The notes below the pieces were generated by a model. It saw nothing but the letters and a program-made list of their open reading frames with translations, was not told the DNA's origin and did no database searches. Both the position numbers and the translations under genes were made by a program. From the sequence record OQ708376.1: a stretch of 64,000 nucleotides of DNA; one strand, given 5' to 3'. The DNA is from Escherichia phage vB_EcoM_CRJP21. Numbering within the stretch: the stretch's first letter is position 1; every line of letters starts with the position of its first letter. This document shows, piece by piece, positions 11,797 through 61,008 of the stretch.

Positions 11797-13122
11797 ATGA
11801 CTACTCAAAACGATATCCTGAACGTTAAACTGACTCCAAAGAAAGCTAAAGAAGCAATGGCACTAGCTGACATGATTCAAGATAGCCTGATGATTTGGGG
11901 TAGCCCAGGTATCGGTAAGTCTGCAATCGCTCGTCAATACGCTGATGAAAATTACCCACTGCGTAAAGATAACGTAGCTAAAATCGAGTTCATGAAACAA
12001 CAAATCGAAGCTGACCCTGAAAATGCTGATCAGCTACGCCGTGAACTGGCTGCATTTGAAGCAAAACTAATCGACCAAGATACTAACTTTATCGATTTCC
12101 GTTTGTCTCAAATCGAACCAAGTGACCTTCGCGGTATTCCAGTACCAGAGAAGCTTTTCCGTAAAACTGACGGTTCTCTTCTGAAAGAATCTGAGCTTGC
12201 CGAAGCAAAAGATTATGTAGCTGAAACTGCGGTAGTATGGGCTGCACCTAAAGTTCTGAAATTGTCCGAAGATTGGAAAGGTGTTATTCTGTTTGACGAA
12301 ATTAACTCTGCAATGCCTATTGTTCAGGCAGCGTCTTATCAGCTAATCCTCGACCGTTGTGTTGGTGAGATGAAGCTACCTAAGACTGCACTGATTCTTG
12401 CAGCAGGTAACCGTGAAACTGATGGCGGTGTAACTTTCTCTCTTGCTACACCACTGCGTGACCGTATGACTCACATTGAGATGATTCCTTATCATCAAGA
12501 TTGGATTAACGATTATGCGATTGCAAAACGTTTGAACCCAGCAACTGTTGCGTTCATCAACAACACTGGTTCTAAGTACTTTAACACACTTAGTCCACAA
12601 GATCCTTCTCACAGTGGTGGTACTTCTCCACGTTCATGGGAAGCAGTAGCACGCTACGAAGATCTCAAGAAAACTAAGACAATTGATAAAGAAGTGTTCC
12701 GTGCAATGATTGCTGGTCGTGTTGGTGAAGGTGTTGCAACTGAATACATTGAGTACGTTGAGAACGTTGCTAAATTACCAGATACTATGTCTATTCTGTC
12801 TGGTGAAATCAAAGAAATCGACGCAACGCTGGATATTTCTGCGAACTACTTTATCACTCTGAACTTGGTTTATAAAATTATCGACCTGTTCAATGAGAAG
12901 CAAGAACAACGTCTACCAGTGGAAGAATGGGGTAAACTGTGTAACAACTTCATCACCTTCCTAGACCATAACTTCTCTGCAACTCAAGCAGAACTGGCAG
13001 TACTGGCAATTCGTACCATCACGCTTCATAAGGTTGCGATTTCCATTAAAGATGTACCAGCGTTTAAAGATTTCATCGCTAAGTACTCTGATCTTGTACG
13101 TAAAGCACGCTCTCTTGGCTAA
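11797..13122 (+). CDS. MoxR/CobS-type AAA+ ATPase
   Basis: 441 aa; Walker A GSPGIGKS; Walker B ILFDEINSA; MoxR-like sensor/second-region stretch LPKTALILAAGNRE...ATPLRDRMTHIEM. Confidence 0.8.
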   Translation: MTTQNDILNVKLTPKKAKEAMALADMIQDSLMIWGSPGIGKSAIARQYADENYPLRKDNVAKIEFMKQQIEADPENADQLRRELAAFEAKLIDQDTNFIDFRLSQIEPSDLRGIPVPEKLFRKTDGSLLKESELAEAKDYVAETAVVWAAPKVLKLSEDWKGVILFDEINSAMPIVQAASYQLILDRCVGEMKLPKTALILAAGNRETDGGVTFSLATPLRDRMTHIEMIPYHQDWINDYAIAKRLNPATVAFINNTGSKYFNTLSPQDPSHSGGTSPRSWEAVARYEDLKKTKTIDKEVFRAMIAGRVGEGVATEYIEYVENVAKLPDTMSILSGEIKEIDATLDISANYFITLNLVYKIIDLFNEKQEQRLPVEEWGKLCNNFITFLDHNFSATQAELAVLAIRTITLHKVAISIKDVPAFKDFIAKYSDLVRKARSLG

Positions 13123-13196: not shown

Positions 13197-14621
13197 ATGT
13201 CAGATAACAAATCTACTTCAAGATTCAATGAAGTATCTCCGGCACTCCAGAAAGAATGTCAAGAACGTCTGGTTCTGGCTCGTACATCTTTGATGTTAAC
13301 TGCACCATTCTTTGGTGTACTCGCTTCACGTTTACGTCCAGTTCCTAATAATACATGGTGTCGTACTCTAGCAGTGGATGGTAAACATCTATTCTACAAC
13401 GTAGAATTTGTAATGGGCATTCAAGACCCATCTAAAAAGAAAGAATATGAAGAAGCTATTCGTGAAAAGCACCCTGAAGTTACAGACGAACAATTAAAAG
13501 AAATGACTGAAGGTTTGACTGATGAAAACCTTGTTGCTGTAATTTGTCATGAAATTCTACACTGTGCTTACGATCACTTCCTTCGTCGTGGTATGCGTGA
13601 TCCACAACGTTATAACCGTGCAGCGGATTATGCCATTAACCAAATCATCGTTCGTGAGAAAATTGGGAAAATCCAAAGTTCATGGTTGTATGATAAAAAA
13701 TATGAAGGCATGACCGCAGAAGAGATTTACATTCTTCTTGAAGAAGAAGAACAAAAAGAAGATGGTGAAGGTGAAGGTCAACCACAAAGTGGCGGCGGTG
13801 AAGGTGAAGGTAAAAATCGCGGTACTTTTGGCGATATTAAAGATGGTAAGGGTAAACCAAAAGGTACTACCATTGACCAGCATGACGTTCCACAAGAAGG
13901 TCAAGAGGGTGGTTCAAGTGAACAGCAAAAACGTGATTACATGGATGATTTCAAAACAGCAATGATGAATGCTGCTCGTGCAGGTGGTACACCAGCAGAA
14001 ATCGCTCGTATGATTAACAACTTTAAAGAACCAAAGATTGACTGGCGTTCAAAACTTCAACGTACACTTCGTAGTTGGTTGAAGTCTGATGCAACATATC
14101 AAAATCCGAATCGTCGTTCTTGGGGTGCAGGTTTTGGTTCTAATGGCTCATTCTATGGTAATCCAATTTACCCAGGGATGAAACCAGATGATGATATTGA
14201 TATTGCGATTGCACTAGATGCTTCTGGGTCTATTTCTGAAGATATGCTTCGTGATTTCATTAGTGAAGTTCTTGGCATCACTAAACAATTCAAACAGTTT
14301 AAGATTCGTATCATGACTTTTGATACTGAAGTTTATACTGTAAAGGATTACAAAACTGGCGAAGAACGTAAGATTCTGGAATATCCAGTAAAAGGTGGTG
14401 GTGGTACTGACTTTGAAGCAGTATGGGTTCATATGAAGAACGACAACTACAAGCCTAAACAGCTTGTAATGTTTACTGATGGTGAACCGTGGCAGTCATG
14501 GGGTGATCCAAACTACTGTAAAACACTGTTCGTGATTCACAGTAACCCAAATAAAGTTGCACCATTTGGTGAGACTGTACACTACGAATATGAAGCTGAT
14601 AAAAAGCGTCAACGTAGTTAA
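13197..14621 (+). CDS. VWA (MIDAS) domain protein with N-terminal HExxH putative metallopeptidase domain
   Basis: 474 aa; N-terminal HEILH (HExxH); G/E-rich low-complexity linker; C-terminal VWA with MIDAS residues DASGS ... GGGTD ... TDGEP. Confidence 0.7.
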   Translation: MSDNKSTSRFNEVSPALQKECQERLVLARTSLMLTAPFFGVLASRLRPVPNNTWCRTLAVDGKHLFYNVEFVMGIQDPSKKKEYEEAIREKHPEVTDEQLKEMTEGLTDENLVAVICHEILHCAYDHFLRRGMRDPQRYNRAADYAINQIIVREKIGKIQSSWLYDKKYEGMTAEEIYILLEEEEQKEDGEGEGQPQSGGGEGEGKNRGTFGDIKDGKGKPKGTTIDQHDVPQEGQEGGSSEQQKRDYMDDFKTAMMNAARAGGTPAEIARMINNFKEPKIDWRSKLQRTLRSWLKSDATYQNPNRRSWGAGFGSNGSFYGNPIYPGMKPDDDIDIAIALDASGSISEDMLRDFISEVLGITKQFKQFKIRIMTFDTEVYTVKDYKTGEERKILEYPVKGGGGTDFEAVWVHMKNDNYKPKQLVMFTDGEPWQSWGDPNYCKTLFVIHSNPNKVAPFGETVHYEYEADKKRQRS

Positions 14622-14668: not shown

Positions 14669-14696
14669 GGGACAACTTATAAAAATATGATATAAT
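14669..14696 (+). promoter_or_regulatory. Sigma70-type promoter (GGGACA-16-TGaTATAAT) for the unknown/SLOG/thyA operon
   Basis: -35-like GGGACA at 14669-14674, 16-nt spacer, TATAAT at 14691-14696 preceded by ATGA, as in P1/P2. Confidence 0.45.
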
Positions 14697-35073: not shown

Positions 35074-36417
35074 TTATTTGTCAGTGAAAGTTATTTTCCA
35101 ATATCCCTGACGATACACAGGCATGATACTTTTATGCCATTTAAATTTGTCATTATATCTATAATAACCATTGTCTTCTTTATTATAAATGTAATTTCGT
35201 ACAGTAGATGGATCAATTAATTGTGCACCGTCATTTGTAATTTTAAACAAATAATTTGATGGGATTTCGGTTTCTTTATAAATGATGTTATGTATACTGT
35301 TATTTACATAATATTGTTCAGGTAATGCACTTGAAAGTACTGAATCTTTCTGCACAAACCCATGTATAGTGTAATCAACAGTATAATTGGTATTATCAAG
35401 CTGTACTATAATTTTGTTGGCATCTTCATTTTCACCATACGACGCTATATGACCTTTTAGTGGGTTGTCTTCTTCAATAGATTGTTGAAATTTAATCCCT
35501 ACTTTTTTGTCATCAAAATTTGGTTCTAGATATTTAAGATATTTTTCCCATGAATATATTCCACCGTTGGGAGAAACCGCAGATAGCGATTGGCTAACCA
35601 AGGTAAGTTGGTATGTATCAGGTAAATTATACTTGGAATTAGTAATTTCTTCAACTTTAATGCATAAATTCTTGGGTGTAAAAACATCTGTTATTATATC
35701 TGAATAATTTCCCATTTCAAAATCAAATTCGTCACGAGCACCTTTAATATTTGTAGTAATCTGTTGGATTAATTTTGGTTTTTCAACAATAGCTGGTAAA
35801 GAAAACCATATTGTCGTTTCAAATGTTAAAACCATTATATCCAAATCTGGGTCAGTTCCTTGTGGAAAACCACGAGTAGAAAACTGACAATCTATTAGTT
35901 CAACATCACTAAGCGATGTCCAATCTAACGGGTTATCAGATAATTGAAGTTGTATACTAGGTGCAAACAAAGTTGAGATTTGTTCGAATAATTCCATTTT
36001 AGTTTGAGTTTGAGTTACCCAAATATTCAAATCAAACGTAAAAGTCCAAGGTACTGGGTTATGTCTTACAATTTTGTATTGTGTGTCAAGATCTTTTGTG
36101 TACTCATTAATAGCAGGGGACTTGTTAGACCCCATTACTATAGTTTCGTTGGCATTAGAACGAATATTTTTACGATCCAACTTTAGTTGATTAACACTTA
36201 TGGTCATTATAGGTGCTGATGGGAGAACATTTTCACTATTCCCATTTATAATTGCTGCTGCCATTCTTGAAATATCGGCATAGCGACATGGAACCTTTTT
36301 GTATTTTGGGTTTCCATTAGCATCAATACCATTTTGTACTTGAAATTCACCAAAAACTCTGATAAGATGTTTCAGTACTCTGCGAAATTGACCGTCATAA
36401 TAATAATCTATTTTCAT
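35074..36417 (-). CDS. Tail sheath stabiliser / tail completion protein (T4 gp15-like)
   Basis: 447 aa; N-terminus MKIDYYYDGQFRRVLKHLIRVFGEFQV...PKYKKVPCRYADISRM...LPSAPIMTISVNQLKLD parallels T4 gp15 MFGYFYNSSFRRYATLMGDLFSNIQI...DKFIRVPITYASKEHF...LPRINLHLVDFSYNA. Confidence 0.6.
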   Translation of the reverse strand: MKIDYYYDGQFRRVLKHLIRVFGEFQVQNGIDANGNPKYKKVPCRYADISRMAAAIINGNSENVLPSAPIMTISVNQLKLDRKNIRSNANETIVMGSNKSPAINEYTKDLDTQYKIVRHNPVPWTFTFDLNIWVTQTQTKMELFEQISTLFAPSIQLQLSDNPLDWTSLSDVELIDCQFSTRGFPQGTDPDLDIMVLTFETTIWFSLPAIVEKPKLIQQITTNIKGARDEFDFEMGNYSDIITDVFTPKNLCIKVEEITNSKYNLPDTYQLTLVSQSLSAVSPNGGIYSWEKYLKYLEPNFDDKKVGIKFQQSIEEDNPLKGHIASYGENEDANKIIVQLDNTNYTVDYTIHGFVQKDSVLSSALPEQYYVNNSIHNIIYKETEIPSNYLFKITNDGAQLIDPSTVRNYIYNKEDNGYYRYNDKFKWHKSIMPVYRQGYWKITFTDK

Positions 36418-37907
36418 TCTGTGTCCTTATGTATGCGATAAACAGTATTAGGTTTAACTGCGTCATGTAATGGAACTTTGTTATCACTATTTACAAACTG
36501 TGTAAGTGCTAAGTCTGCACCTTCCCACGGTTTTCTTCCACCATAATCAAAAATAACCCATGAATTCTTAGTTGCATTGAATTCCCATAACGTAACTGGA
36601 GTATAATCGGTGCGATAGAAATAGTCACCATCTACTGCATCAGTTGGGAACATATTTCCTTCAGGGACTGTACCTCGTGCTGGTGGAATTTTAGGACGAT
36701 AATCTTGTTGCGAATCAATATTACCATATACACAATTGGACGTGAATGGTTCATTGACATAAGTTACCTTTGGTTCCCCCCACTTGTCATCATTATACTG
36801 ATAAATGTGTGGTTCTTTATAAAAAATACAAAAATCTTCCACATCTTCTGGTGGAACATCACTGGTAGTATATTCTACATCACAATTTAACCATTTTTTA
36901 GCACTTTTATCATATTGATACAACGTATAACCTGTCACATCTGCGTCATTTTCTTTAAAGAAGAAGTCACCATCCATTGGTTTTCTGGGAAAGATGGTTC
37001 CACGCTTGACTTCCACAGAAATCCATGTATCATTAACAAACTCTTTGAGTACTGGGTATGTTTTTTTCAAAAAATACATTCCATCGGCAGGTTCTTCTGG
37101 AAAATCATAACCGTTAAGCATATATTTTGATAAATCTACTGTATCAGGTCGATCATCATACAAATGTTCGTTTGTATAATGAATATAGGGTACTTCATCA
37201 TCAGCTTGCATGATGATACGGTTCATGATATCCATTTCATTGCCATAGTTACTGTTTTCCGACGAACCATCATCGGTATTTCCATTACCATTATTAGGGT
37301 CATCTGGATTATCAGGATAATTATTGTTACCGAGTAAATCGGAGTACTCAGGTGAGTCGGTTAGCGGTTTAACTCTAAGTTTATAAATGTGATGTTGCCA
37401 CGTAACCGAGTATCCCTCAGATGTACGAAATGCATCTTGGACGACATAGAAGCGGTTTAGACCTGTATCTTTACCCAATACATCAAAATCACGTAAATTT
37501 GGTAGTTCTATCACATCCCCTGGCATGATTTTTCTACCTAAACGCTGCATCATTGTATTATAATGGATTGTGATGTCCATAGTGTTGAAATTAAAGAACA
37601 ATCCTGGGATTTTCAAGTCTGGAGTTGCTTCTTGAACTTGATAGACACAACTAAGTGTGATAGCTTCAAGGTTGTAGTTTCTGTTTGGTGTGTCACCAAA
37701 AATTAAATCGCCAATACTTGACACAACTGATCCTGAAGATGTATAATCACCTCCATAGGATAAGTCAGTGTTGTCAGCAACTTGTTTTGGACCGACATAT
37801 GCATAAAGCCACATGTCAACTCCACCAATGTTGTATTGTTCAGCAATGGCAGAATCAATGAACTTGTAATCATTGGTTCTACCTTTTTTCCACATTCTAT
37901 ATGTCAT
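36414..37907 (-). CDS. Putative neck protein (by position relative to gp15-like; gp13/gp14-like?)
   Basis: 4-nt overlap with the downstream gp15-like gene; ATG at 37907 (M5 of the track ORF) has a GGAGA RBS, whereas the track start is a TTG; acidic N/D/G-rich low-complexity insert; no direct motif match. Confidence 0.35.
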   Translation of the reverse strand: MTYRMWKKGRTNDYKFIDSAIAEQYNIGGVDMWLYAYVGPKQVADNTDLSYGGDYTSSGSVVSSIGDLIFGDTPNRNYNLEAITLSCVYQVQEATPDLKIPGLFFNFNTMDITIHYNTMMQRLGRKIMPGDVIELPNLRDFDVLGKDTGLNRFYVVQDAFRTSEGYSVTWQHHIYKLRVKPLTDSPEYSDLLGNNNYPDNPDDPNNGNGNTDDGSSENSNYGNEMDIMNRIIMQADDEVPYIHYTNEHLYDDRPDTVDLSKYMLNGYDFPEEPADGMYFLKKTYPVLKEFVNDTWISVEVKRGTIFPRKPMDGDFFFKENDADVTGYTLYQYDKSAKKWLNCDVEYTTSDVPPEDVEDFCIFYKEPHIYQYNDDKWGEPKVTYVNEPFTSNCVYGNIDSQQDYRPKIPPARGTVPEGNMFPTDAVDGDYFYRTDYTPVTLWEFNATKNSWVIFDYGGRKPWEGADLALTQFVNSDNKVPLHDAVKPNTVYRIHKDTE

Positions 37908-37949
37908 GATTGTCTCCAAAATAAATCGGGTATATCTTTATTTACCTTG

Positions 37950-37977
37950 TAGACAAACCGTAAGAATGTGATATAAT
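37950..37977 (+). promoter_or_regulatory. Sigma70-type promoter (TAGACA-16-TGaTATAAT) for the ClpA-like gene
   Basis: -35-like TAGACA at 37950-37955, 16-nt spacer, TATAAT at 37972-37977 preceded by AATGTGA; same extended -10 core as P1/P2. Confidence 0.45.
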
Positions 37978-38017
37978 GTTTATTAATTAGAGTGACGTGA
38001 ATCACATAGGAGAATAC

Positions 38018-40306
38018 ATGAATCTTACTCAATTGTTCAAAAAAAGCGACGAACTGGCAACATCTCTAGGTCATACATTCTTGACTATTGACCACGTAAG
38101 TGCCACAGTACTGACTATTGATAGCATCAAGAACGTATTTGAAGATATGAACATTGATGCAGACAAACTGCACAACCGCCTAATGAACTATCTTAAAAAT
38201 ACAACAGTTCCACATGCACCAAAAAGTGTTAAAGATGAAGACGCGAATCGCACTTCACTTCTAGTGAATCGCGTTGTACATGAGCTTTCTAAAAAATCAG
38301 TTATTGAACAACTAAAAAGTGATGATTTTTCGATTGATGCATATTTTGTTCTATTCGAATGTCTGTCTTTCCCTAACACAGCACTAGAAGCTGCGTTAAA
38401 AGAAGAAGGTGTTAGCTGTACTGAAGCTGCACGTGCATTACAGAAACACGTTGAGTCACTTGATAAGGGTATCAACTTACAAAGTATTAATGACGAACCG
38501 ATTGGAGATAAAAAAGTGGCCCAACAGCAGCAATCATCTAAACAAAAAGGTTTGGAAGACTATACAACGAATCTAACTGCTCTTGCAAAAGAAGGCAAAC
38601 TAGATCCTATGATTGGTCGCCAGAAAGAATTGTCTGCATTGATTGAGACTCTTGCTCGCAAAACCAAAAAGAATGCTATTCTCACTGGTGAAGCTGGTGT
38701 AGGTAAAACACAAATCATCGACGGGCTTGCACAAGCTATTGCTGATGGTAACGTACCTGAACACCTAAAAGACGTTGAAATTCTTTCACTAAATGTTGGT
38801 GCATTGACTGCTGGTACTAAGTATCGTGGTGAATTTGAAGAACGCATCGACAATTTGCTAAAAGAACTAAAGAAACGTGAAAATACTATTGTTTTCATTG
38901 ATGAAATTCATATTATGGTTGGGGCTGGTTCCGCAAGTAATGGTTCTATGGACATGAGCAATATGCTTAAGCCAGCACTTTCACGTGGTGAGATTCGTGT
39001 AATTGGTGCAACAACATATGATGAATATCGTAAAAATATCGAGAAAGATAGTGCATTAACTCGTCGTTTTATGAAAATTGACGTAGTTGAGCCGACAATT
39101 GATGAAACTCGTGCAATTGTTAATGGTTTGAAACCAACGTATGAAAAATTCCATAATGTTGAGTTCACATCTGATGCAATGGATGCTGTAATTTCTCTCA
39201 GTGATAAATTCCTGAAGAATAAGCACTTCCCAGATAAAGCAATTGATCTAATGGATGCTGCTGCGGCTAAAGTTCGTTCACGTGACAACAATAGTAAGCT
39301 TATTACTTCCAATTTGATTCAAGAAGTTGTTGCTGGTATTGCCAATTTGGATATCAACGTGGTTGCATGTACTGAAAGTGATCGTATGCGTAATCTACCA
39401 GATGCACTACGCTCACGTGTATACGGTCAAGAGGAAGCTATTCAAAAATTAGTTGATAACGTGATGGTAGCTCGTGCAGGACTGCGTGACAAATCTAGTG
39501 TTCAGGGTGCATTTATGTTTGTTGGACCATCTGGTACTGGTAAAACAGAAATTACCAAAGCATTAGCAGACGCAACTGGTGCGGAACTCATTCGCTTTGA
39601 TATGTCAGAATTTTCTCAAGAACATACTGTTTCTAAACTAATTGGTTCACCTCCAGGTTATGTTGGTCATGATTCTGGTAACGGTTTACTGTTGGATAAA
39701 ATTGAGCAGTTCCCTAATGCAGTACTGTTACTTGATGAAATTGAAAAAGCAGATCGTAAAGTACTACTAACCTTCCTACAGGTTTTGGATGAAGGTCGTC
39801 TGACTGGTTCTCAAGGTAAAACTGTATATTTTAATAACGTAACTGTTATTATGACTACAAACCTTGGTGCGGCTGATTCAACAAAGCGTAGCATTGGTAT
39901 GAGCGGTAGTGACACTGCACAGGACAAGGCAATTAAAGCATTCTTGCCACCAGAGTTTATTAACCGTATTGATAGTATCGTTACGTTTAAAGACCTAAGC
40001 AGTGAAGCTATTGACAGCATCATTGATAAGTTCATGGGTGGTTTGAATGAACAAGTCAAAGACCGTAATGTTAAAGTTACATTGACAAAAGCTGCACGTG
40101 AATGGCTTGCGAAAAATGGGGTAAAAGTTGGTATGGGTGCACGTCCAATGAAACGTACCATTGAACAAAACATTCGTGTACCACTAGCTAAAGAAATGTT
40201 GTGTGGTTCACTTGTGAATGGTGGTAACATTACATTTGATGTTATTGATGGTAAAATCGGTATTAAGCCGAAACGTACCAAAGCTGTAGATAAAGCACTA
40301 GTATAA
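38018..40306 (+). CDS. ClpA-like two-domain AAA+ unfoldase
   Basis: 762 aa from the ATG at 38018 (AGGAG RBS); D1 Walker A GEAGVGKT and Walker B IVFIDEIH; D2 Walker [10 protein letters not shown] and Walker [10 protein letters not shown]; long collinear similarity to E. coli ClpA (e.g. [16 protein letters not shown] vs GREKELERAIQVLCRR); retains [10 protein letters not shown] where ClpA has the ClpP-docking RKSIGLIHQD loop. Confidence 0.85.
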
Positions 40307-40343
40307 AAAAAGAAAAGGAGAGCATAATGCTCTCCTTTTTTTA
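40306..40343. terminator. Bidirectional rho-independent terminator between the ClpA-like gene and the giant gene
   Basis: A-tract, GGAGAGCAT-a-ATGCTCTCC, T-tract. Confidence 0.6.
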
Positions 40344-43300
40344 TTACTTAACTAATAATATATTTTTAATATCATTACCACTAACTTGTAGACTATCAGT
40401 GTATACTGAAAGATCTATAGTGTAACTATTTTGTGTGTAACGTTTTAACATATCATAATTACCTAAATTAATTCCATTGAAAGAATATGTAGTATTAAGT
40501 TTAAAATCATGTTCTGCACTATACATTACACCACGGAGTAAATTATTTGCATTTCTAACTTCAACTTTTTCATATCCAATCGATATAATATCATTCATGT
40601 TTGCGGCTGAACCGGATAAAACATTATTTCTAATACTATAAGGACTTATTGATTTAGGTTGAGAAACATAGGTTGTATTTTCTTCACTAATGGTTGTGAT
40701 GTTAGTAACAGTACCACCAACAACACCGATATACATACCGTCAACCATTGGGAATCCATAAACCCATATCCCTTCATTATTTCTAAACGGTTGAATAACA
40801 CTTGAATCATATTCGATAACGTTGATTTCTAAACTATCAGTCATTTTAGTTCTTGCCAATTCACTAAGAACTCCCGCACCCGTAATTGGTAAGTTATAAC
40901 CGTTATCGATAGTAATTCCATCAACATCAAATATTTCATTAGAGATTATCCAAACGTCAACGTCATCTGGTGTTATTCCGTCATTGTACTTACCACCATT
41001 TAAAGTAGTATCGTAGAAAACATCATAATTAATTACATCAATGGTGTAATTTCTATTTTGTTCATACAATTTAATACCATTCTTGACAAATTCAGGGTCA
41101 GCAAATGTTCTAACACGAACAATGTTCAATGCTAGAGGCTGTACTGGCTCATTTTGTTGTGCAAGAGTGATGTTATCATAACGGAGAACTGCACCAGTAC
41201 TCTCATCAATCAATTCAATCGTTTCCTTACCTGTATTTCTTACAGTGAATAGGATCGGAGTTGTATTGTTTTTGATGTTAGATACACGCAAGATTGTTTC
41301 CCATGTGTGATTTTGATATCTCACAAAATCTTCACCATCAGGAGTGAAAATCATCACCTTATCACCATCAGATAGGTCATTGTCAACTATTTCTGCTTCA
41401 GTTAAGCTATTAATAGATCTCACACGATAGAAATATTTTTCATCAAACTTCGATGTTGTTTTATTAATATCATTTTCAATCTTAGCATATGAAGGAATAC
41501 TTACAATTGCTTCTGTATGTTTATATGGATTGATAATTGCCATACCTTCAGTTTGATATCTGCTGTTATCACGTAATTGTACAAGAGATACATTGTCAAA
41601 CCCATATCCATCAACTGTAAATCTAATTTGACCTACATCACGCCCAGAAGGGTTTATGTCAGATATATCCACAATATAAGGATCAACTTCATCATCTTTA
41701 ACTTCCCATTTTATTGAAGAAGTTTGAGATTCCAATGCTAGGTTATCAAATGCATTCATATCATTGAAGTACTTAGCTTCAGTAATACTATCAAGTATAT
41801 ATTGATAATCAGAATACATTGGATTATTTTGATCTAGTGGTAAATCATCAAGATTTATTTCAGCTAGTTCAACCATTTCACCATTTGTGATAAAATAATC
41901 TTCCATGAAATCATCAATACTTTGTTCATCAGGTATACTTTGATATACACCGTTAACATTTAAGTAAACATATTTTCGTGGAATCATTGTAATTGCATAG
42001 ATATCAATTGGGGTCTTACTAAGAATCTCTTCAGCTTTTTCGTACTTATCAGTAGCGTCTTTGTCGAATAACCCTCTCATACCTGCTAATACGTGAATAG
42101 CATCAGTATAGAAACGGGTATCACCACCTACTTCATCATAACGATAAACATATACACCATACTCAACTTCAAGTTTAACTTTTACTTCATAGTCTGATGC
42201 GTCAGGATTTTTATCTTTAATTAATGAAATGTATTTTTGATACAATTCACTGCTTATTTCAAAATATCCATAGTTATAATCATTACTAGAAGAAAAGCCT
42301 AATGGAAGTCTAGTACTAGGATTGTCATTATAAGTAAGTCCACTAAATCCACATCCAACTTCATCGTGAATTTTCTCATCACTTATATCTTTATAAAGTT
42401 TCAAACGGTTTGCCAATGTGTTATACTGAACATATTGTCTAAGGTCAGTAAACATATCGTTATGCGTTGATTCTTTATAAACACGTTCCAATGTAGCAGT
42501 GAATTCATCAGTTGCTTCTAAATCTTCCGCATGGTCTTTATACCACTGGTTAACGCCATATGCTGTTCCTAGTGTTACATCCAATTCTGGATAGTAGATT
42601 TGCATTTGATAAGCAATAAGAAGATCGAAAGTTTCTTCACTATATTCTGGGAAAGAATATATATAACGTTGTAATTCATAGTTACTAACAGCATCCTTTT
42701 CATTGGATTGATATTTGTTATTAACACTTACTAATTCATTTATGCTTGCCAAATCTTCATTTGGTTTACACTGAATATTATCATAATGCATAATAATATC
42801 AATTTCTTGGAATCTTCTATTTGGTGTAACGAAATCACTTGGTAGTGAACCTACCTGTTCCCATTTTTGGGTAATTTCATTAAATTGAGCGTACTCATAA
42901 TCCCAAATATCTTTTTCAGTTTTGATCCAAGAACCATCAACGAAAATATATCCATTAGGATCTAAATCATTACATAGACCTTTTATTAAATCATCATCAG
43001 ATGTCTTTTGCTCTATTTGTGAACGAATTTTAGTTCTATAAGGTTTAACTTCTTCAAAATATTCAACAATTTGATTAATCAAATTATCGTTTGAATAGTT
43101 TTGAACTAATGATTGTTCCAAACCAACAATATAGATATATGATGTTTTAAATACCCAATCCACAACACTTTGTTCAACATGTACATATTTGACCATATCA
43201 AAAACAATTTCGCTTTGATGTAAATCGAAAGAATTTTTGAGTAAAGCTAGTGCTTTACGAACGTTGATTTCACGATTGCTTAGTGAACCATTATCATTAT

Positions 43301-46300
43301 GAACACTATAATCTGCGTAAAGCATATCATTGAGTTCAACTGTACTGTTTTCACGACCAATCGCTTTCCAATAAATTGAATCGCGTGATTGTGATTTAAT
43401 ATACAATGTCCAAATGTTTTCACTATCGGTAACTCTGATAATATCGCCAACTTGGTAGTTTTTAGTATTAGCATCTTCTAAGCTTGACTCTTGAGTATAA
43501 GTCGTGTTACTATCATATCCAACATCATACCAATCAGCATATGACCAGTACTGAGTCATGTCTAATGAGGTTCCTAGTGATTCAACATAATCAGATTGTT
43601 TAATCATTTTATGTTGTCCCTCACCTTTGTTTTCTAACGTTATAGTAACAACACTACCCGCGTTTGCTGGACTATTCATTAACTGAATATATCCATTTTC
43701 GTCGAAGTGAATAAAATAAACAGCACTAGAAGTTAATGGATTTGGTAGATATCCACTAGTACTTAAAATAACAGCGTCATTTTCTTTAAATTTATCACTT
43801 TCAACTGCAATAACTAATTCATTATTGTAAGACAACACACGGAAAGAAACTTCATTAGGGTTAACTTCAGTGGTTTTAACATTAAACACATCTTCCATAA
43901 CAACACTATTAGTGGTTATGTTTTGTGACCTATAATAATTATTAGCACTTTCTACAAAGTTTCTACGAGCTTCTATAACATTTTGGAACCAAGTTTTGTT
44001 TGATCCTAAACCGTTATCAACATCTGGATATAATAAATTAATCACAGAACCTGATTCAGTTGTTTCTTGACCAATTAGTGAGTTCCACATTGAATCCCAA
44101 ATTAGTGGGTTAAAGTTATAGCTGTCACCTTCTTTACATAGTTGATACTGGTCATGTTTAACAACTTCAGTACTATCCATGTAATAAGAAACAGTTAAAA
44201 TACTGGTATCATCATTCACTTTAAATTGCATATTACTAAGAATAAACGAGTTTTCATTTATTGGAGCGAACCAAGGAATGTTTAGCTGTGTTGGATCTTT
44301 AATAATACGAGCAATGTCAGTACATGATTTCGTTCTGGTATGTAGTGGTGGTACATAAATTGTATCACGTACCCAGAAATAGTATTTTGTTACATAACTA
44401 TCAGTTGAACTATCATATTCCAAAAATGTACTATAATTATCTTCAAGTGCAGTTCCACTTGGTAGATACATAGTATTATTTTTGTTTTTCTTAGCAACAT
44501 CTTTACAGTATTTGTCCCAGTTATATGGCTCAACTGGTGAACAAACCCACTCTAACACATCAATGGTACTATGTGGTAACAAACGGCCCCAGTTGTAACG
44601 TTTGTATTCATTGGTTGCATCAATATCAACATTACCGTCTGCGTCATAAATTGCACGAGTATAATCCAAATAAAATGCAGTGCTAGTGTTCCACCATACT
44701 TGACCAACTTTATCAGCACCCCAAGCCTGGATTAACTCTCCATTACTATTATACTGTGCAGGATCAACTGGTGAAGTATATGTTACGTTTTGCATAGCCG
44801 CACCTGGAATAACACCATTAATTGGGTCATAAACGTTTAGATATAGCTCAGTAATGTTAGTACGTTCATCATATGTCGTTGGACGATCAAATAAAGTACT
44901 TTGTGGTGCTTTAAAACTATATTTCTTGTCAATGTAAGCTTGACGATCATCAGTACTGGCAAAACGTGATACATAACGATACAAACGTGGACGTGTATCT
45001 GGATCAGTAAATTCAATATCAATAGAAGTGTCAAATGGAACTACCATAACTTTAGGATCAGAACCAGCAGTATAATATTGACTTTCTACTGTTAAAGTAT
45101 CTGGCATAAAGTTAGTTTCATCAACAAAATAATAATAATCACCATCTTCAAGTGGTACATTATCAGTTAAAGTTACTTTACAAAATTGTTCAGCATACAC
45201 ATCGGTATTTTCAATAGGTGTTATAGAAACCATTTGTACATTAGTATCAACCAATTCAAAAATGTTCCACAAACCATTACCGTCTTTAAACATCCACACA
45301 GATTCAGGATTTTCACCTTTACCATTAGTATAAGTTATGCGGTCATTATATGCAGTACTGAAATCTTTTGTTGTGTACGATACTTCATCCAATGTTACTG
45401 GACCAATATCTGGAAGTTGGATGTTTTCACTTCTTCCACTACGCATTGGGAATGAGAACTTACCATTTGGACGTGTAATCCAACGAGGATCTTTACCTTG
45501 CTCACCGAAGTATACAATATGATTACCATTACCATTTGAAGTTGCATTTACATCAAAAGAAACCATTTGAGGTTGTTGTTTAAATTGGTCATTGATTAGT
45601 TTAAATTGAAGGTTTTTCTTACCATCAATATTACCATATGTACCAATTTTAAATGCCCATTCTTGTAATGCTTTATATTCATCAGTGTCATATGATTTAG
45701 AAACACGAAGTACACGTTCTAAAACTTGGTTAGTACCTTTATCGTGAATGAATCCTTTATAGAAATCAACACGACTAACATCACTACTAATCATACGCTG
45801 TAGATAATCACGAGATTGATAACCAATCAAATGGTTTGACAACTCTTGTAATTGTACATCACTTACTGGAGTTTCACTATCATAATAATGTTGGAAATCC
45901 GACACTAATTTTTCAAATGATGGTAGTGTTCCAGCTTCCAAGATAATAAATCCAGGAGCTTGTAGGCGACCAGTCCATGAACCAGTAATATATCCATACA
46001 TTTTAATTAGTTCTTGAATAGAACCATATGTTGGCTGATAAATGTAATCACCAAAAATAGTTTTATCATCAAAAATAACAGCATGTTCATATGAACACAA
46101 ACTTAAACGAATCAATGCAATGCGTTTATTAGATTCTAAAGTTCTAACAGTGAAGATATTTCCAATACGAGAAGTTTCAATTTCATATTGGCGAATACCT
46201 TGGTTATTATCATCAAGTAATGACCATACACCACCATTATTTTGCGTAATAGATTGTACTGAACCAAAGTCTGCCCCAAATTTAGCGTTTGCAGCACTTG

Positions 46301-49300
46301 GGGTACAAGAAATAAATTCACCAGTTACTAGAGAATTCTGACTCCAGATCACGAAATCTTTAGCAATAGTGTTCCAATCTTGTTGAGCACCACTATCATT
46401 TACATCTTCAAAAATCCAACCATGTTCTTTAAGATATTCACCATATCCACAAATAAAAGTATAAACTTCTTGGTAACTATTGAAAACTTTACCATATTCA
46501 ATTGAAGCTTCAGACTTCCATTCATTATAATGAACAACATTACGGTTTTCCAATTTAAGAGTTACTTTTCTACCATTTTTTACTGGAAGTTTATATTTAA
46601 ATTTAGCACCAACTAGATCATATCCATCAATCTGATATGCACTACCATTCCAAGTAATTTTGATCGCACTCATTTGCTCATCACGGATATTATTAGAACG
46701 AACAAGACCAATGGTTTGGTTTTCTTGTGAAATAAGACCGAAAGATTTAGCATTGAATGTTAGCTGATCTGCTTTAGTAAATCCTCCAATTTTATGACCA
46801 ACATTTATATAAGAAGAACGAACTACATCCCCATACTTGGTGGTAATATTTTTATTTTGATACATCAAATGGTCACTTACAAACATTTGATAACCAATTG
46901 TTCTTGTGCTATTTTCACCATGAACTACTGTATTTTTATCAAAATTAATACGCTTACGTGTATCACCATAAAGGAATTGTGAACCATCAGTGAATACTTC
47001 TTTTAAGTTATCGTTGCGGGTATCCCAGAAATAGTTAGCAAATTGTGCTGGTTTAGCTTTATACAAAAGCATCATTTGGTCATATGCAAACAATGTAGTG
47101 TTCATGTATGTAAATTCCATGTCACCCATATCACCATATGTCCAAGGTTCTGCTCTATGATTTAAAGATCCAGACACTAAACCTAAAATTTCAGGTGCAA
47201 TATATTCAACCACACAAATATCAATACCAGAAGATGTTTTATTTCCAGTTTTTGTAATTTTGAATGGCTGTACACCAAATCTTTTATATTTGTCATATTG
47301 ACCACGACGATCACCAAATAAAATAGTTCCAGTACTGCTATCTCCAATAGTTCCGTCAATATCCCAAAGACCACTAGGAACTAAATCACCTTGCTCATTC
47401 ATAACAAGTGCTTCATATACATATACAACATCACTATCACGTTCACCAACTTGAACAGCCGTTGGTTCGTATTCTTGGTTCCACCAAGTTGGACGTTGTG
47501 TAAAGCCAAACATTTCCCACGGATGGGTAGCTGGGCGATATGTACCATATTGGTCAGTGTAAATGGCACGCCATGAACCACGTGCAGGAATTTCAGTACT
47601 TTGACCATTAACTACATAATAAGTGCCAGTATAGTTCCAAGTTCTCCAATTGTTAGGATCATAATCATGTGTACTATTACTGATACCATTAGTTGCGGTG
47701 AAGTTAATGTATCCACGTAGTAATAATGTTTGTTTCTCTTCAGCACTATATTCAGTTTTAGTGAAATATGGTGTAGGGAAAAGGTCATCACTATTCAATA
47801 CTGGTACGTAATCAACATCTTTGAATTTATTATCAATACTATTAAAAATTCTATTTTCTAATTCATATACAACATCATCCATTTTATCAACACCATTGAT
47901 AACACGGTATGCTTTGGAAATAATACCAGTATGACTGATGTTATAACAGCTTGGTTTACTACCAGCAGTGAGGAATGTCGCTTTTTCTGGTACATATGCT
48001 TGAAGAATACCTAAGAACTGTGGTGTTGGTGGTATAAATGCACGAATGAATCCAGAAGTACTTCCAACATTATCATAATAGAATGGGAATGAACTATCAC
48101 GTCCCATATTAATAGTAGTTAAAATTGCATCAACAATGTTTGCAGCACTATTTTGTAAAAAGTCTGATGGATTTTCATCATACATACGAAGCATTTGTGT
48201 ATTAAATTTATTAATGAATCTAAAATATTCAGATTGCATAAACATAGTTGCTTCAAACAAATCAATATCTTCATTTGCAGTATGTGCCATCAATGGAAGC
48301 ATAGATGCTTCATTTTGGATAATTTTAGTACCTACGCCATTATTAACCAATCCTTTAGCCAAACGTTCTTCATAGTCATTGAAATCATCAGAAGAACCAC
48401 GTGTAATGTTCTTTTGAATAATATCCTGAAAATGTAAAGTGTAGTCACCTTGGTTAATGTATATAATATTAGAATTATATGGGTTATTTTGTAGGTTGAT
48501 TGGAACTTCATATGCACCTAATTCTTTATTAGGAGTTACAGTACTGCTATAAGTTCTAATTTGAATAACAGAATCTTCATCCAATTCTACAGTACTATCT
48601 AGAGTGATGCTTTGTACTTGACCTTTTGAAACATTTTTGGTATATTTGGACACATCAACACCATCAACCACAACTTCAATAATATCAGAATCATTATCTA
48701 AAACTTTTTGTGCCAATTCGAATGTATGGTCATATTTTACAATCTGAACACCATCACCAGTAATTGGATGCCAATCTAGATAAGTTTCACGGTCAGCTTT
48801 ATAGTACTGATATGTTCTATCAACTTCAATAACATATGCATACATACCATCAACTGGTTCTTTAAAAACTTCCATATCATAAACAGTACTGAATACACGA
48901 TACATATCAGTACGTTGGACTTGTGGAGTTTGTTTTACAAATTGTTTAGAGTACTCTTCTGAACGAACCCAATCGGTTTGAAGATTCATTTCATTATTTT
49001 CATCAATAATGTTATAATAGTATAAACCATCAATTTCAACTTCTTTTCCAAGATGGTCATAGGTATAACGTTGGGATTGTAAAAAGTTTTCATAAATGTA
49101 ATAATTATAATCACCAAGTTCAATGTTATATCCATATACACTATCAGTTGCATAGTTGTAATTTATTTTAAAACCAAACAACTCTGAACCTTTAAAGTTA
49201 CTTGATGGATATGTAGTACTGTTGTCAAGTTTGATACCATTACGATCATAAAGTTGGAATTTAGGGAATACGTTAACACTAGTTTTTGATTGTGCACGAA

Positions 49301-50315
49301 CCCACAAAGATCCATTCCAGTACATAGAACTATTACCATACTCATTACCTTTAGTGATTAGAACAACATCACCATCTTGAGGTTCACCACTTGGGCGTGA
49401 TTCGGTTTCTTCTTCTGGATCTAGTGCTAAACCATAAACACGAGTACCATCTTGCATTTTTTTCACATATACATTATAAATTCTATTGTTTTCACCATTG
49501 TTACCAATACTGGTGAATAGAATACGCATTCCATCTTGCGGAATAATACCATCAATACGTATACCACTATTAATATCTTTTTGAACGATATCTTCAGGTT
49601 TAATAATATCAGAGAACAGATCAACAGTTCCACGGAATTTTGTACCGTAGTTAATTAGCTCAATATTTTTATTATATTCAATAATTGGTGCACGTGCACG
49701 AATAAAACGTGAATCTTGCATTAATTCTTCAGTTAATATTGAGCCATCTTCTAATGTTTCACCTAAAGTATACCAAAAGTTTTGTAGTGACCATGTATTA
49801 CCATTAAGTGCTCCACGTTCCATTACAATGTAATCAGGTGAAGTAATATTATAAGAGTTTTTAGTATCCCAAAGATATGAGCTAAAATTGTTCATTTTAT
49901 TTGGGTTAATAGCTGGAGTCCATGCATAAAACTTACCGTTGAACAAACGGCTTTCATTATCGGTTAGTGCTCCATAATGATTCATGTATCCAACTAGATC
50001 ATCATAAAATTGAATTGAACGAATTGTCGAATCATCATTTTTTGAGACGTAAGCAGTGGACAACTGATAAAGTTGACGTGCTACAGTACTTTCATGTAAG
50101 AAGATATTACCAGCAGCGGCAGGAGAACCCATATCACCAATATAGCCGTCAACTAATTCGTTTTCAGCCGGATTAAACCATTGTTGAATAACATCATCAC
50201 TGACTTTTTGAATATCTTCTAAGCCTTGCATCCACTCAGGCAATCTTTTAATAAAAAGCTTCTTCTGTACTGCTTCAGCCATCTGTGTAGGTTGAAACTT
50301 AAAATTATTAGTCAT
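40344..50315 (-). CDS. Giant virion-associated structural protein (baseplate/fibre-associated?)
   Basis: 3323 aa from the ATG at 50315 (GGAG RBS; the track ORF starts 10 codons upstream); uninterrupted ORF immediately downstream of the gp6-like and gp25-like genes on the same strand; N/Y/D/T-rich composition without an obvious catalytic motif. Confidence 0.55.
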   Translation of the reverse strand: MTNNFKFQPTQMAEAVQKKLFIKRLPEWMQGLEDIQKVSDDVIQQWFNPAENELVDGYIGDMGSPAAAGNIFLHESTVARQLYQLSTAYVSKNDDSTIRSIQFYDDLVGYMNHYGALTDNESRLFNGKFYAWTPAINPNKMNNFSSYLWDTKNSYNITSPDYIVMERGALNGNTWSLQNFWYTLGETLEDGSILTEELMQDSRFIRARAPIIEYNKNIELINYGTKFRGTVDLFSDIIKPEDIVQKDINSGIRIDGIIPQDGMRILFTSIGNNGENNRIYNVYVKKMQDGTRVYGLALDPEEETESRPSGEPQDGDVVLITKGNEYGNSSMYWNGSLWVRAQSKTSVNVFPKFQLYDRNGIKLDNSTTYPSSNFKGSELFGFKINYNYATDSVYGYNIELGDYNYYIYENFLQSQRYTYDHLGKEVEIDGLYYYNIIDENNEMNLQTDWVRSEEYSKQFVKQTPQVQRTDMYRVFSTVYDMEVFKEPVDGMYAYVIEVDRTYQYYKADRETYLDWHPITGDGVQIVKYDHTFELAQKVLDNDSDIIEVVVDGVDVSKYTKNVSKGQVQSITLDSTVELDEDSVIQIRTYSSTVTPNKELGAYEVPINLQNNPYNSNIIYINQGDYTLHFQDIIQKNITRGSSDDFNDYEERLAKGLVNNGVGTKIIQNEASMLPLMAHTANEDIDLFEATMFMQSEYFRFINKFNTQMLRMYDENPSDFLQNSAANIVDAILTTINMGRDSSFPFYYDNVGSTSGFIRAFIPPTPQFLGILQAYVPEKATFLTAGSKPSCYNISHTGIISKAYRVINGVDKMDDVVYELENRIFNSIDNKFKDVDYVPVLNSDDLFPTPYFTKTEYSAEEKQTLLLRGYINFTATNGISNSTHDYDPNNWRTWNYTGTYYVVNGQSTEIPARGSWRAIYTDQYGTYRPATHPWEMFGFTQRPTWWNQEYEPTAVQVGERDSDVVYVYEALVMNEQGDLVPSGLWDIDGTIGDSSTGTILFGDRRGQYDKYKRFGVQPFKITKTGNKTSSGIDICVVEYIAPEILGLVSGSLNHRAEPWTYGDMGDMEFTYMNTTLFAYDQMMLLYKAKPAQFANYFWDTRNDNLKEVFTDGSQFLYGDTRKRINFDKNTVVHGENSTRTIGYQMFVSDHLMYQNKNITTKYGDVVRSSYINVGHKIGGFTKADQLTFNAKSFGLISQENQTIGLVRSNNIRDEQMSAIKITWNGSAYQIDGYDLVGAKFKYKLPVKNGRKVTLKLENRNVVHYNEWKSEASIEYGKVFNSYQEVYTFICGYGEYLKEHGWIFEDVNDSGAQQDWNTIAKDFVIWSQNSLVTGEFISCTPSAANAKFGADFGSVQSITQNNGGVWSLLDDNNQGIRQYEIETSRIGNIFTVRTLESNKRIALIRLSLCSYEHAVIFDDKTIFGDYIYQPTYGSIQELIKMYGYITGSWTGRLQAPGFIILEAGTLPSFEKLVSDFQHYYDSETPVSDVQLQELSNHLIGYQSRDYLQRMISSDVSRVDFYKGFIHDKGTNQVLERVLRVSKSYDTDEYKALQEWAFKIGTYGNIDGKKNLQFKLINDQFKQQPQMVSFDVNATSNGNGNHIVYFGEQGKDPRWITRPNGKFSFPMRSGRSENIQLPDIGPVTLDEVSYTTKDFSTAYNDRITYTNGKGENPESVWMFKDGNGLWNIFELVDTNVQMVSITPIENTDVYAEQFCKVTLTDNVPLEDGDYYYFVDETNFMPDTLTVESQYYTAGSDPKVMVVPFDTSIDIEFTDPDTRPRLYRYVSRFASTDDRQAYIDKKYSFKAPQSTLFDRPTTYDERTNITELYLNVYDPINGVIPGAAMQNVTYTSPVDPAQYNSNGELIQAWGADKVGQVWWNTSTAFYLDYTRAIYDADGNVDIDATNEYKRYNWGRLLPHSTIDVLEWVCSPVEPYNWDKYCKDVAKKNKNNTMYLPSGTALEDNYSTFLEYDSSTDSYVTKYYFWVRDTIYVPPLHTRTKSCTDIARIIKDPTQLNIPWFAPINENSFILSNMQFKVNDDTSILTVSYYMDSTEVVKHDQYQLCKEGDSYNFNPLIWDSMWNSLIGQETTESGSVINLLYPDVDNGLGSNKTWFQNVIEARRNFVESANNYYRSQNITTNSVVMEDVFNVKTTEVNPNEVSFRVLSYNNELVIAVESDKFKENDAVILSTSGYLPNPLTSSAVYFIHFDENGYIQLMNSPANAGSVVTITLENKGEGQHKMIKQSDYVESLGTSLDMTQYWSYADWYDVGYDSNTTYTQESSLEDANTKNYQVGDIIRVTDSENIWTLYIKSQSRDSIYWKAIGRENSTVELNDMLYADYSVHNDNGSLSNREINVRKALALLKNSFDLHQSEIVFDMVKYVHVEQSVVDWVFKTSYIYIVGLEQSLVQNYSNDNLINQIVEYFEEVKPYRTKIRSQIEQKTSDDDLIKGLCNDLDPNGYIFVDGSWIKTEKDIWDYEYAQFNEITQKWEQVGSLPSDFVTPNRRFQEIDIIMHYDNIQCKPNEDLASINELVSVNNKYQSNEKDAVSNYELQRYIYSFPEYSEETFDLLIAYQMQIYYPELDVTLGTAYGVNQWYKDHAEDLEATDEFTATLERVYKESTHNDMFTDLRQYVQYNTLANRLKLYKDISDEKIHDEVGCGFSGLTYNDNPSTRLPLGFSSSNDYNYGYFEISSELYQKYISLIKDKNPDASDYEVKVKLEVEYGVYVYRYDEVGGDTRFYTDAIHVLAGMRGLFDKDATDKYEKAEEILSKTPIDIYAITMIPRKYVYLNVNGVYQSIPDEQSIDDFMEDYFITNGEMVELAEINLDDLPLDQNNPMYSDYQYILDSITEAKYFNDMNAFDNLALESQTSSIKWEVKDDEVDPYIVDISDINPSGRDVGQIRFTVDGYGFDNVSLVQLRDNSRYQTEGMAIINPYKHTEAIVSIPSYAKIENDINKTTSKFDEKYFYRVRSINSLTEAEIVDNDLSDGDKVMIFTPDGEDFVRYQNHTWETILRVSNIKNNTTPILFTVRNTGKETIELIDESTGAVLRYDNITLAQQNEPVQPLALNIVRVRTFADPEFVKNGIKLYEQNRNYTIDVINYDVFYDTTLNGGKYNDGITPDDVDVWIISNEIFDVDGITIDNGYNLPITGAGVLSELARTKMTDSLEINVIEYDSSVIQPFRNNEGIWVYGFPMVDGMYIGVVGGTVTNITTISEENTTYVSQPKSISPYSIRNNVLSGSAANMNDIISIGYEKVEVRNANNLLRGVMYSAEHDFKLNTTYSFNGINLGNYDMLKRYTQNSYTIDLSVYTDSLQVSGNDIKNILLVK

Positions 50316-50351
50316 TTTTGGACTCCATATAATTCGTTCATTCATTTGATT

Positions 50352-60920: not shown

Positions 60921-61008
60921 CGTGGGACAAACTGCTTTTTGGTGCTATAATAACATTGATGGTACAAGGATTGTACCTATTGGATTTAAACATGGAGAGT
61001 AAAATACA

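Follow-up and report, generated by a model that had tools for sequence, protein, structure and literature searches.

The Escherichia coli ClpAPS protease (PDB 1KSF, 6W1Z, 7UIV) is a close described counterpart of the system considered here. In the cryo-electron microscopy structure of ClpAP, ClpA residues I617, G618, L619 and I620 enter a ClpP pocket formed by L23, L48, F49, A52, Y60, Y62, F82, I90, M92, F112, L114 and L189, and ClpP R192 and E26 touch ClpA residues H621, R614 and Q622 (bioRxiv 10.1101/820209). A comparative review of jumbo phages has considered the ClpA and ClpX of this phage group as possible translocases or assembly chaperones (Iyer et al. 2021, PMC7824862); our literature search brought up no experiments on a ClpA from any phage. 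Here we examine a clpA-like gene in a 64,000-nucleotide stretch of Escherichia phage vB_EcoM_CRJP21 (OQ708376.1), referred to below as the window, and ask how its product compares with the bacterial unfoldase and which ClpP it may serve.

The gene call is already known. GenBank names the gene in dozens of jumbo phages, as gp581 'ClpA-like protein' in 121Q and elsewhere as 'ATP-dependent Clp protease ATP-binding subunit', and comparative reviews note the family. The protein matches PHROG 4871 ('ATP-dependent protease') at 1035 bits. Over 2.5 kb, the clpA region is 99.9% identical to that of vB_EcoM_G17 and Sharanji and 99.7% identical to that of 121Q and PBECO4. The 121Q, G17 (G17_00342) and PBECO4 records contain the same gene, with 99.9% protein identity, the same neighbours and no substantive difference from the gene in the window; the name is homology-based in these records, and no functional study of their ClpA was found in the literature. 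These phages belong to Asteriusvirus, a group of jumbo myoviruses of about 350 kb. We also examined the 121Q record (NC_025447.1) outside 275–320 kb, the stretch that matches the window.

We propose, with a probability of roughly 55%, that the gene encodes an active ClpA-type unfoldase that feeds a ClpP, most probably the phage's own, and that a ClpS-like adaptor completes a phage ClpA–ClpP(–ClpS) protease. A phage ClpP is the more parsimonious partner because (i) it is co-inherited with clpA, (ii) the two genes share a promoter class and (iii) both sides of the docking interface have diverged from those of the host.

A divergent ClpA-type protein

A preliminary description of the window, made from the sequence alone, proposed a 762-residue protein with two complete AAA+ modules, collinear with bacterial ClpA, and our searches bear this out. 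In a phmmer search of the PDB, E. coli ClpA (1ksf) aligns in one collinear stretch, residues 17–741 of the phage protein against 20–734 (E = 4e-180), and Pfam matches follow the ClpA order: Clp_N (weak), AAA, AAA_lid_9, AAA_2 and ClpB_D2-small. The top NCBIfam model is that of ClpA (TIGR02639, 754.7 bits, residues 3–740). ClpB/Hsp104 and ClpC share the Hsp100 double-ring fold and give high-scoring matches; however, the phage protein lacks their coiled-coil middle domain, and ClpB, ClpC and Hsp104 consequently align to it in two stretches. Identity as a ClpB/Hsp104 disaggregase was rejected on the missing middle domain, the presence of a docking loop and a ClpB model score of 633 bits, below the cut-off of 1232. 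By these sequence criteria the protein is ClpA-type, neither ClpB- nor ClpC-type, as first supposed, and Foldseek likewise leads to ClpA.

The N-domain is the most divergent part of the protein. It scores 21.7 bits on Clp_N, for which the cut-off is 20.7; TIGR02639 aligns from residue 3, and eight helices are modeled within residues 3–148, in keeping with a Clp_N double repeat. In the AlphaFold2 model, which was built on 32 homologues and has a mean predicted local distance difference test (pLDDT) score of 79, two AAA+ modules follow the eight-helix N-domain and a disordered linker. Foldseek superimposes the model on ClpA D1D2 over about 575–583 columns with template modelling scores of 0.76–0.87, mostly 0.84–0.87; the matches at 0.84–0.87 are ClpA chains from ClpAP cryo-electron microscopy structures.

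The phage protein resembles E. coli ClpA in its N-domain, D1, D2 order without a middle domain, in having all of the ATPase and pore motifs, and in placing a docking loop with a hydrophobic-Gly-hydrophobic tripeptide at the same position. The motifs are GEAGVGKT and GPSGTGKT (Walker A), IVFIDE and VLLLDE (Walker B), KYRG and GYVG (pore loops) and GAR (sensor-2). It differs in overall identity (41–43%), in having IGM rather than IGL, in being encoded by a virus and in its likely partners, a divergent phage ClpP and a ClpS-like protein. Taken domain by domain, the N-domain is 19% identical to that of E. coli ClpA, D1 52% and D2 46%; within the phage clade, the corresponding values are 41% for the N-domain and 64–70% for D1 and D2.

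A database search returned 114 close homologues at 53–93% identity, followed by a sharp fall to bacterial ClpA at ~40%; those with a source name are from Rak2-like jumbo phages. Because of this gap, and because the clade is only ~41% identical to E. coli ClpA, we regard the gene as belonging to an old viral ClpA lineage rather than as a recent capture from a host. Motif conservation was assessed in 115 sequences of this clade, the most distant at 53% identity. None of the 115 has a change at the lysines of Walker A, the glutamates of Walker B, the arginine fingers, the tyrosine of the D2 pore or the arginine of sensor-2, and an aromatic residue is always retained at the D1 pore position (Y in 104, F in 11). 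Family, domain order and motif integrity are thus established, and the conservation indicates that both rings are under strong selection for ATP hydrolysis and polypeptide translocation.

The ClpP-docking-type loop

In the HMMER alignment the phage loop falls on ClpA RKSIGLIHQD and matches S616-I617-G618-L619-I620. By this alignment IGM stands at the position of IGL; the preliminary description had placed it there, and we found neither a displaced segment nor a grouping with ClpB-type disaggregases. The modeled pLDDT falls below 50 for residues 624–630, which would mean an exposed flexible loop, as expected for a docking loop. The first three positions are conservative, although IGM departs from an [ILMV]-G-[FL] tripeptide in its third residue, where Met may or may not be functionally equivalent. 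Across the clade, 112 of 115 sequences have I, M, L or V as the first residue of the tripeptide and 96 have Gly as the second; at the third, 94 have M (60), V (12), F (12) or L (10), and the rest A, G, I or H. IGA, IGG or LGG runs through whole subclades. Variants include IGM, LGL, IGV, IGA, IGG, LGG, IAG, MSM, MNM, LNI and TGM, with MSM or MNM characterizing the Salmonella SE_PL/7t3 group. The tripeptide is therefore less constrained than the ATPase motifs: the loop position is right, but the motif is not a strictly conserved canonical one. Subclades that combine variant tripeptides with invariant ATPase motifs may either have a re-tuned interface or have lost ClpP docking. We also observe that the Salmonella phage 7t3, with MNM, still has a ClpP.

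A phage ClpP and a ClpS-like protein

No ClpP was noted in the preliminary description, which went on to suggest that the unfoldase could dock on host ClpP and might, for example, destroy defence or competitor proteins. Indeed, neither E. coli ClpP nor the phage ClpP has a tblastn match in the 64-kb window at E ≤ 1. This absence holds for the window but not for the phage, because 121Q and G17 encode a ClpP outside it: gp464 of 121Q, which is 100% identical in G17. The step from a window without ClpP to docking on the host enzyme therefore loses its footing. The pocket of the phage ClpP is unlike that of E. coli at most contact positions.

The gp464 protein matches Pfam CLP_protease (4e-41) over profile positions 2–179 of 182 and is 35–37% identical to E. 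coli ClpP. Its Ser-His-Asp triad is intact (aligned to S97, H122 and D171), and the axial-loop motif IPYVVE...ER is retained. By sequence it is a catalytically intact ClpP, albeit one that lies under the NCBIfam ClpP equivalog cut-off (151.6 versus 308.6 bits). RefSeq names it a head-maturation protease. We rejected this assignment, since gp464 scores about three times higher on the cellular ClpP model (155 bits) than on that of the ClpP-related head-maturation proteases (51 bits), and since the head protease of 121Q is a separate gene in the head module, the T4 gp21-like gp601. It departs from E. coli ClpP at 12 of the 13 docking contacts compared, which were R192 and 12 positions of the pocket. 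Rak2-type ClpPs have several changes in common: T or V stands in place of Y60, S, Y, N or C in place of F82 and G in place of L114, and R192 is missing.

The putative adaptor is gp48 of 121Q. It scores 24.7 bits on Pfam ClpS (cut-off 23), and all 8 of its PDB matches are ClpS, at a weak E of ~0.2. A core of ~70 residues lies between long N- and C-terminal extensions. At the N-degron pocket, which in E. coli ClpS consists of N34, D35, T38, M40 and H66, gp48 reads D, D, T, A and N (N34D, M40A and H66N). Nothing usable was found in the literature on the residues through which ClpS contacts the ClpA N-domain, so a pairing between the N-domain and the ClpS-like protein stays an inference. The gp48 gene adjoins an IF3-like gene and a KTSC/DnaJ-like gene, and an extended −10 element, TGATATAAT, lies ahead of its gene block at ~30.36 kb in 121Q.

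The three genes occur together. Among GenBank phages, 70 records have ClpA and 69 have ClpP, each at ≥60% identity. The ClpS-like gene is present in 71 records, and in at least 21 its identity is ≥99%. The records for all three come from phages of the same nine host genera (Escherichia, Klebsiella, Salmonella, Erwinia, Yersinia, Pectobacterium, Serratia, Cronobacter and Xanthomonas), and identities drop in step. A tblastn search with gp48 gave no match beyond these nine genera, the hosts of the Rak2-like clade.

In a related but more distant lineage of jumbo phages, the PA5oct-like phages of Pseudomonas (Wroclawvirus), a ClpA 41–43% identical to the one described here is likewise paired with a ClpP. 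Unlike in the Rak2-like clade, the loop of this ClpA is a canonical SIGF, and the accompanying ClpP is nearer to the cellular enzyme (46–48% identical to that of E. coli, compared with 35% for Rak2-like ClpP). Their clpA and clpP genes lie ~13 kb apart.

Two further proteins of 121Q came into consideration. As a second partner for ClpA, gp473 ('ClpP-like') was rejected on its Pfam score of 16.7 bits, below the cut-off, its 21% identity to ClpP and its signal-peptide-like N-terminus. The other is gp475, a weak HslV-like protein; the 121Q annotation tables examined contain no HslU-like product name, although no homology search for HslU was made.

A promoter class shared with replication genes

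The preliminary description proposed a sigma70-type clpA promoter with a box in common with the MoxR module, and placed both in one early regulon. The box is shared: the 12-mer ATGTGATATAAT occurs exactly twice in the window, at 37966 (clpA) and 11616 (upstream of a MoxR-like ATPase), with one-mismatch copies at 11523 and 14685. Its count is only weakly above chance (5 observed, 1.84 expected), and we set the 12-mer alone aside as a regulon marker and used instead the full −35/−10 pattern, [G/T][G/A/T]GACA, 13 nt and TG[A/C]TATAAT (xGACA-N13-TGATATAAT type). This pattern is clearly enriched, occurring 27 times in the first 275 kb of 121Q where a first-order Markov model predicts 1.7. Over the 303.5 kb of 121Q scanned there are 31 occurrences (4 of them in 320–348.5 kb), and all 31 are on the plus strand.

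Judged from the annotation by eye, many of the 121Q sites lie just upstream of genes for SSB, primase, exonuclease, topoisomerase II and a DNA polymerase block; other genes behind the class are those of the MoxR ATPase, the gp55-like late sigma factor and ClpP gp464, whose promoter is at 214302. Because the gene for the late sigma factor stands behind a promoter of this class, the class is placed upstream of late transcription in the cascade. A common regulon with the MoxR module is thus upheld as far as promoter type goes, but the term 'early' is not established: SSB, primase, topoisomerase II, ClpP and the late sigma factor are under promoters of this class too. In phage CBB, the equivalent of the clpA promoter has been published as Porf_235, a member of a 'divergent RpoD-like' class found mostly ahead of DNA-synthesis genes and the late sigma gene, and separate from the RpoD-like promoters with UP elements, which form a cluster in the region presumed to be early (PMC5259590). 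The class described here appears equivalent to the 'TGAAACG' class published for CBB. No transcriptome of an Asteriusvirus or RaK2-like phage was found in the literature.

The clpA extended −10 element is kept in UE-S1, WPEC5, RaK2, Munch and CBB, across four genera in which the remaining spacer has diverged, and in RaK2 the −35 hexamer is a perfect TTGACA. Back to back with the clpA −35 lies a T4-late-like motif, GGTAAATA, on the opposite strand, at a position kept in six aligned phages. The spacer thus seems to contain two divergent promoters of different temporal classes. The structural neighbours of clpA have the late TAAATA-type promoter, unlike clpA, and because this motif occupies the same spacer on the other strand, clpA should be timed differently from them. 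As far as sequence goes, clpA expression would be pre-late and coincide with that of the replication genes.

Gene organization and virion proteomes

In the window, clpA is the lone plus-strand open reading frame between two minus-strand structural genes, which agrees with the preliminary description of a gene transcribed divergently from structural genes. A program-made list begins the reading frame at a GTG (37997, ending at 40306, plus strand); this start was rejected in favour of the ATG at 38018, which has an AGGAG Shine–Dalgarno sequence and is the start in GenBank. The AGGAG is kept in the aligned Asteriusvirus, Munch and CBB sequences. The transcription start is predicted near 37984. 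Downstream, where clpA and the gene for the 3333-residue virion protein converge, lies a hairpin that resembles a bidirectional terminator; the G17, UE-S1 and Munch annotations label it a terminator. With its own promoter upstream and this hairpin downstream, clpA is a self-contained single-gene transcription unit. The coordinates of these and other features are collected in Table 1.

Table 1. Features of the clpA locus, the window and the 121Q record
Feature	Location	Strand	Remarks
clpA-like coding sequence	38018–40306	+	762 aa (amino acids) plus stop
Promoter of clpA, sigma70-type	37950–37977	+	TAGACA, 16-nt spacer, extended −10
−35 of clpA promoter	37950–37955	+	TAGACA
Extended −10 of clpA promoter	37969–37977	+	TGATATAAT; TATAAT with TG extension
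Shine–Dalgarno AGGAG	38008–38012	+	5 nt before ATG, read from sequence
N-terminal domain	38018–38467	+	Divergent Clp_N double repeat, about aa 1–150
Linker after N-domain	aa 157–175		Low confidence; disordered in AlphaFold2 model
D1 AAA+ module	38543–39352	+	Walker A 38687–38710; pore-1 KYRG 38819–38830; Walker B 38888–38911
D2 AAA+ module plus small domain	39353–40252	+	Walker A 39524–39547; pore-1 GYVG 39656–39667
D2 Walker B	39722–39751	+
D2 sensor-2 GAR	40136–40144	+
ClpP-docking-type loop	39884–39913 (aa 623–632)	+	IGM at aa 626–628, nt 39893–39901
Hairpin AAAAGGAGAGCATAATGCTCTCCTTTT	40313–40339	both	12-bp, GC-containing, flanked by A-run and T-run; putative terminator
T4-late-like motif GGTAAATA	37946 down to 37939	−	32 nt before ATG 37907 of ~500-aa structural gene
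~500-aa virion protein gene	36414–37919 (open reading frame)	−	Annotated ATG 37907; divergent from clpA
3333-aa virion protein gene	40344–50345	−	382 kDa; convergent with clpA
Sites of clpA promoter class	11507–11534, 11600–11627, 14669–14696, 37950–37977, 60924–60951	+
MoxR-like AAA ATPase	11797–13122	+
Metallopeptidase (DUF2201_N) plus vWA-like protein	13197–14621	+
T4 gp55-like late sigma factor gene	61009–61848	+	Promoter of clpA's class at 60924
ClpP, gp464	121Q NC_025447.1 214364–215059		Outside window
ClpS-like protein, gp48	121Q NC_025447.1 34461–35006		181 aa; annotated ClpS; outside window
gp473	121Q NC_025447.1 218420–219028		Very divergent ClpP-superfamily protein; signal-peptide-like N-terminus
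gp475	121Q NC_025447.1 219356–219952		Weak HslV-like protein; outside window

The clpA slot is kept in four genera (Asteriusvirus, RaK2, Munch and CBB), with a gp15-like sheath stabilizer/500-residue gene on one side and a gene for a virion protein of ~3330 residues on the other. In the virion proteomes of CBB, GAP32 and RaK2, the products of both flanking genes were detected and the ClpA orthologue was not; ClpP appears only in that of CBB, by one peptide. In phAPEC6 virions gp244, gp245 (382 kDa) and gp248 were detected but gp246 and gp247 were not, and by gene order gp246 should be ClpA. ClpA is a non-virion protein. Its 382-kDa neighbour has been detected by mass spectrometry in phAPEC6, CBB, GAP32 and RaK2. 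Elsewhere in the window, two tandem promoters of clpA's class precede the MoxR-like ATPase gene, which together with the metallopeptidase/vWA gene corresponds to a chaperone/co-chaperone pair reported for this phage group (Iyer et al. 2021).

Proposed mechanism and alternatives

In the proposed pathway, host sigma70 RNA polymerase would transcribe clpA from the extended −10 promoter before the late structural genes are expressed. ClpA would form a hexameric double-ring unfoldase whose D2 loops dock on a ClpP tetradecamer, most probably that of the phage (the gp464 orthologue), and unfolded substrates would be fed in so that selected proteins are degraded. The divergent ClpS-like protein (the gp48 orthologue) may act as an adaptor on the fast-evolving N-domain, and the two together would set the choice of substrate.

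Several observations weigh against this proposal. Both ClpA equivalog cut-offs are missed (TIGR02639, 754.7 versus 993.15; NF008263, 654.3 versus 1350), and the protein is accordingly a divergent ClpA-like subfamily rather than an equivalog. In the docking loop, which is two residues shorter than that of E. coli, the fourth hydrophobic contact, I620, is replaced by Ser. The tripeptide is looser than that of cellular ClpA/ClpX, some subclades having IGA, IGG, IAG or the Gly-less MSM/MNM, and by analogy with ClpX IGF mutants such degenerate forms should weaken docking. On the other side of the interface, the 121Q ClpP pocket has lost aromatic and hydrophobic contacts (Y60T, F82S, L114G and R192P). 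The phage ClpP also has a C-terminal extension of ~25 residues (...NEEGKYLVKRRGGVEEWV), conserved in 121Q, RaK2, GAP32, XbC2 and 7t3 and missing from the ClpPs of E. coli and PA5oct; since the C-terminus of ClpP lies at the edge of the docking pocket, this extension may influence the binding of a partner. The ClpS homology of gp48 is weak and its N-degron pocket partly changed. The three genes are dispersed rather than arranged in an operon, with clpP ~80 kb from clpA, and contact between ClpA and ClpP is supported indirectly, by their co-inheritance and shared promoter class. Finally, the place of clpA in the tail/baseplate module, beside the gene for the 3333-residue virion protein, is fixed across four genera and could point to a role in assembly instead.

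Docking of the phage ClpA on host E. coli ClpP, redirecting host proteolysis either alone or beside the pairing with phage ClpP, is compatible with that pairing. IGM differs only conservatively from IGL, occupies the right position and has similar flanks (RS-IGM versus KS-IGL), and host ClpP is abundant when a sigma70 promoter would fire. We nevertheless consider such docking unlikely, since the phage has an intact ClpP of its own, co-inherited and in the same promoter class, and since E. coli ClpA residues I620, H621 and Q622 correspond to Ser, Gly and Ser in the shorter phage loop. The tripeptide also drifts among phages of related enterobacteria, and near-identical host ClpPs would not predict such drift at an interface with the host enzyme. 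Alternatively, and with much the same low probability, the protein may work independently of any protease, as an unfoldase or chaperone that remodels or disaggregates proteins, helps to fold or assemble the huge tail and baseplate proteins, or translocates unfolded proteins. E. coli ClpA alone has chaperone activity (RepA remodelling), which counts for this explanation, as does the degenerate tripeptide of some subclades (IGG, IGA and MSM) in proteins whose ATPase motifs are invariant. A translocase or assembly role has been proposed generically for jumbo-phage ClpA/ClpX (Iyer et al. 2021), and clpA keeps strictly to its position beside the ~3330-residue virion gene in Asteriusvirus, RaK2, Munch and CBB, although this is weak evidence because the genomes are broadly syntenic. 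A purely chaperone role is made doubtful by the loop, which is kept at full length, starts its tripeptide with a hydrophobic residue in all but 3 of the 115 sequences and is not known from ClpB-type disaggregases, and by the absence of a middle domain for cooperation with DnaK. The promoter, moreover, is of the replication-gene class and not of the late TAAATA type of the neighbours, and the ClpP and ClpS-like genes are co-conserved. That clpA is a decaying or neutral passenger of host origin with no function in infection is extremely improbable and is effectively refuted by conservation: the catalytic and pore residues do not vary among 115 homologues, some as distant as 53% identity, the promoter, Shine–Dalgarno sequence and terminator are conserved, and at only ~41% identity between the clade and E. 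coli ClpA any capture would be ancient.

Implications

The residual interest of the locus lies in the possibility of a complete Clp protease of the phage's own that is orthogonal to that of the host. We did not find this system view in the literature searched: in ~70 Rak2-like genomes clpA is inherited together with an intact clpP and a clpS-like gene, and in 121Q and the window clpA and clpP belong to one promoter class with the replication genes, while each side of the docking interface has diverged. Should the three proteins cooperate, these phages would bring their own regulated AAA+ protease into the cell. That it is also self-contained and orthogonal, with a re-tuned ClpA tripeptide, a ClpP that has a remodelled pocket and a C-terminal extension peculiar to the clade, and a ClpS-like adaptor whose N-degron pocket is altered, and is switched on together with the replication genes, is a more speculative proposition to which we give a low probability. 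An orthogonal protease would allow chosen host proteins, for example those of defence, or early phage proteins to be degraded without competition or control by host ClpAPS. If so, the system would offer a tractable way to learn what a virus must degrade in taking over its host, and a natural orthogonal ClpAP pair.

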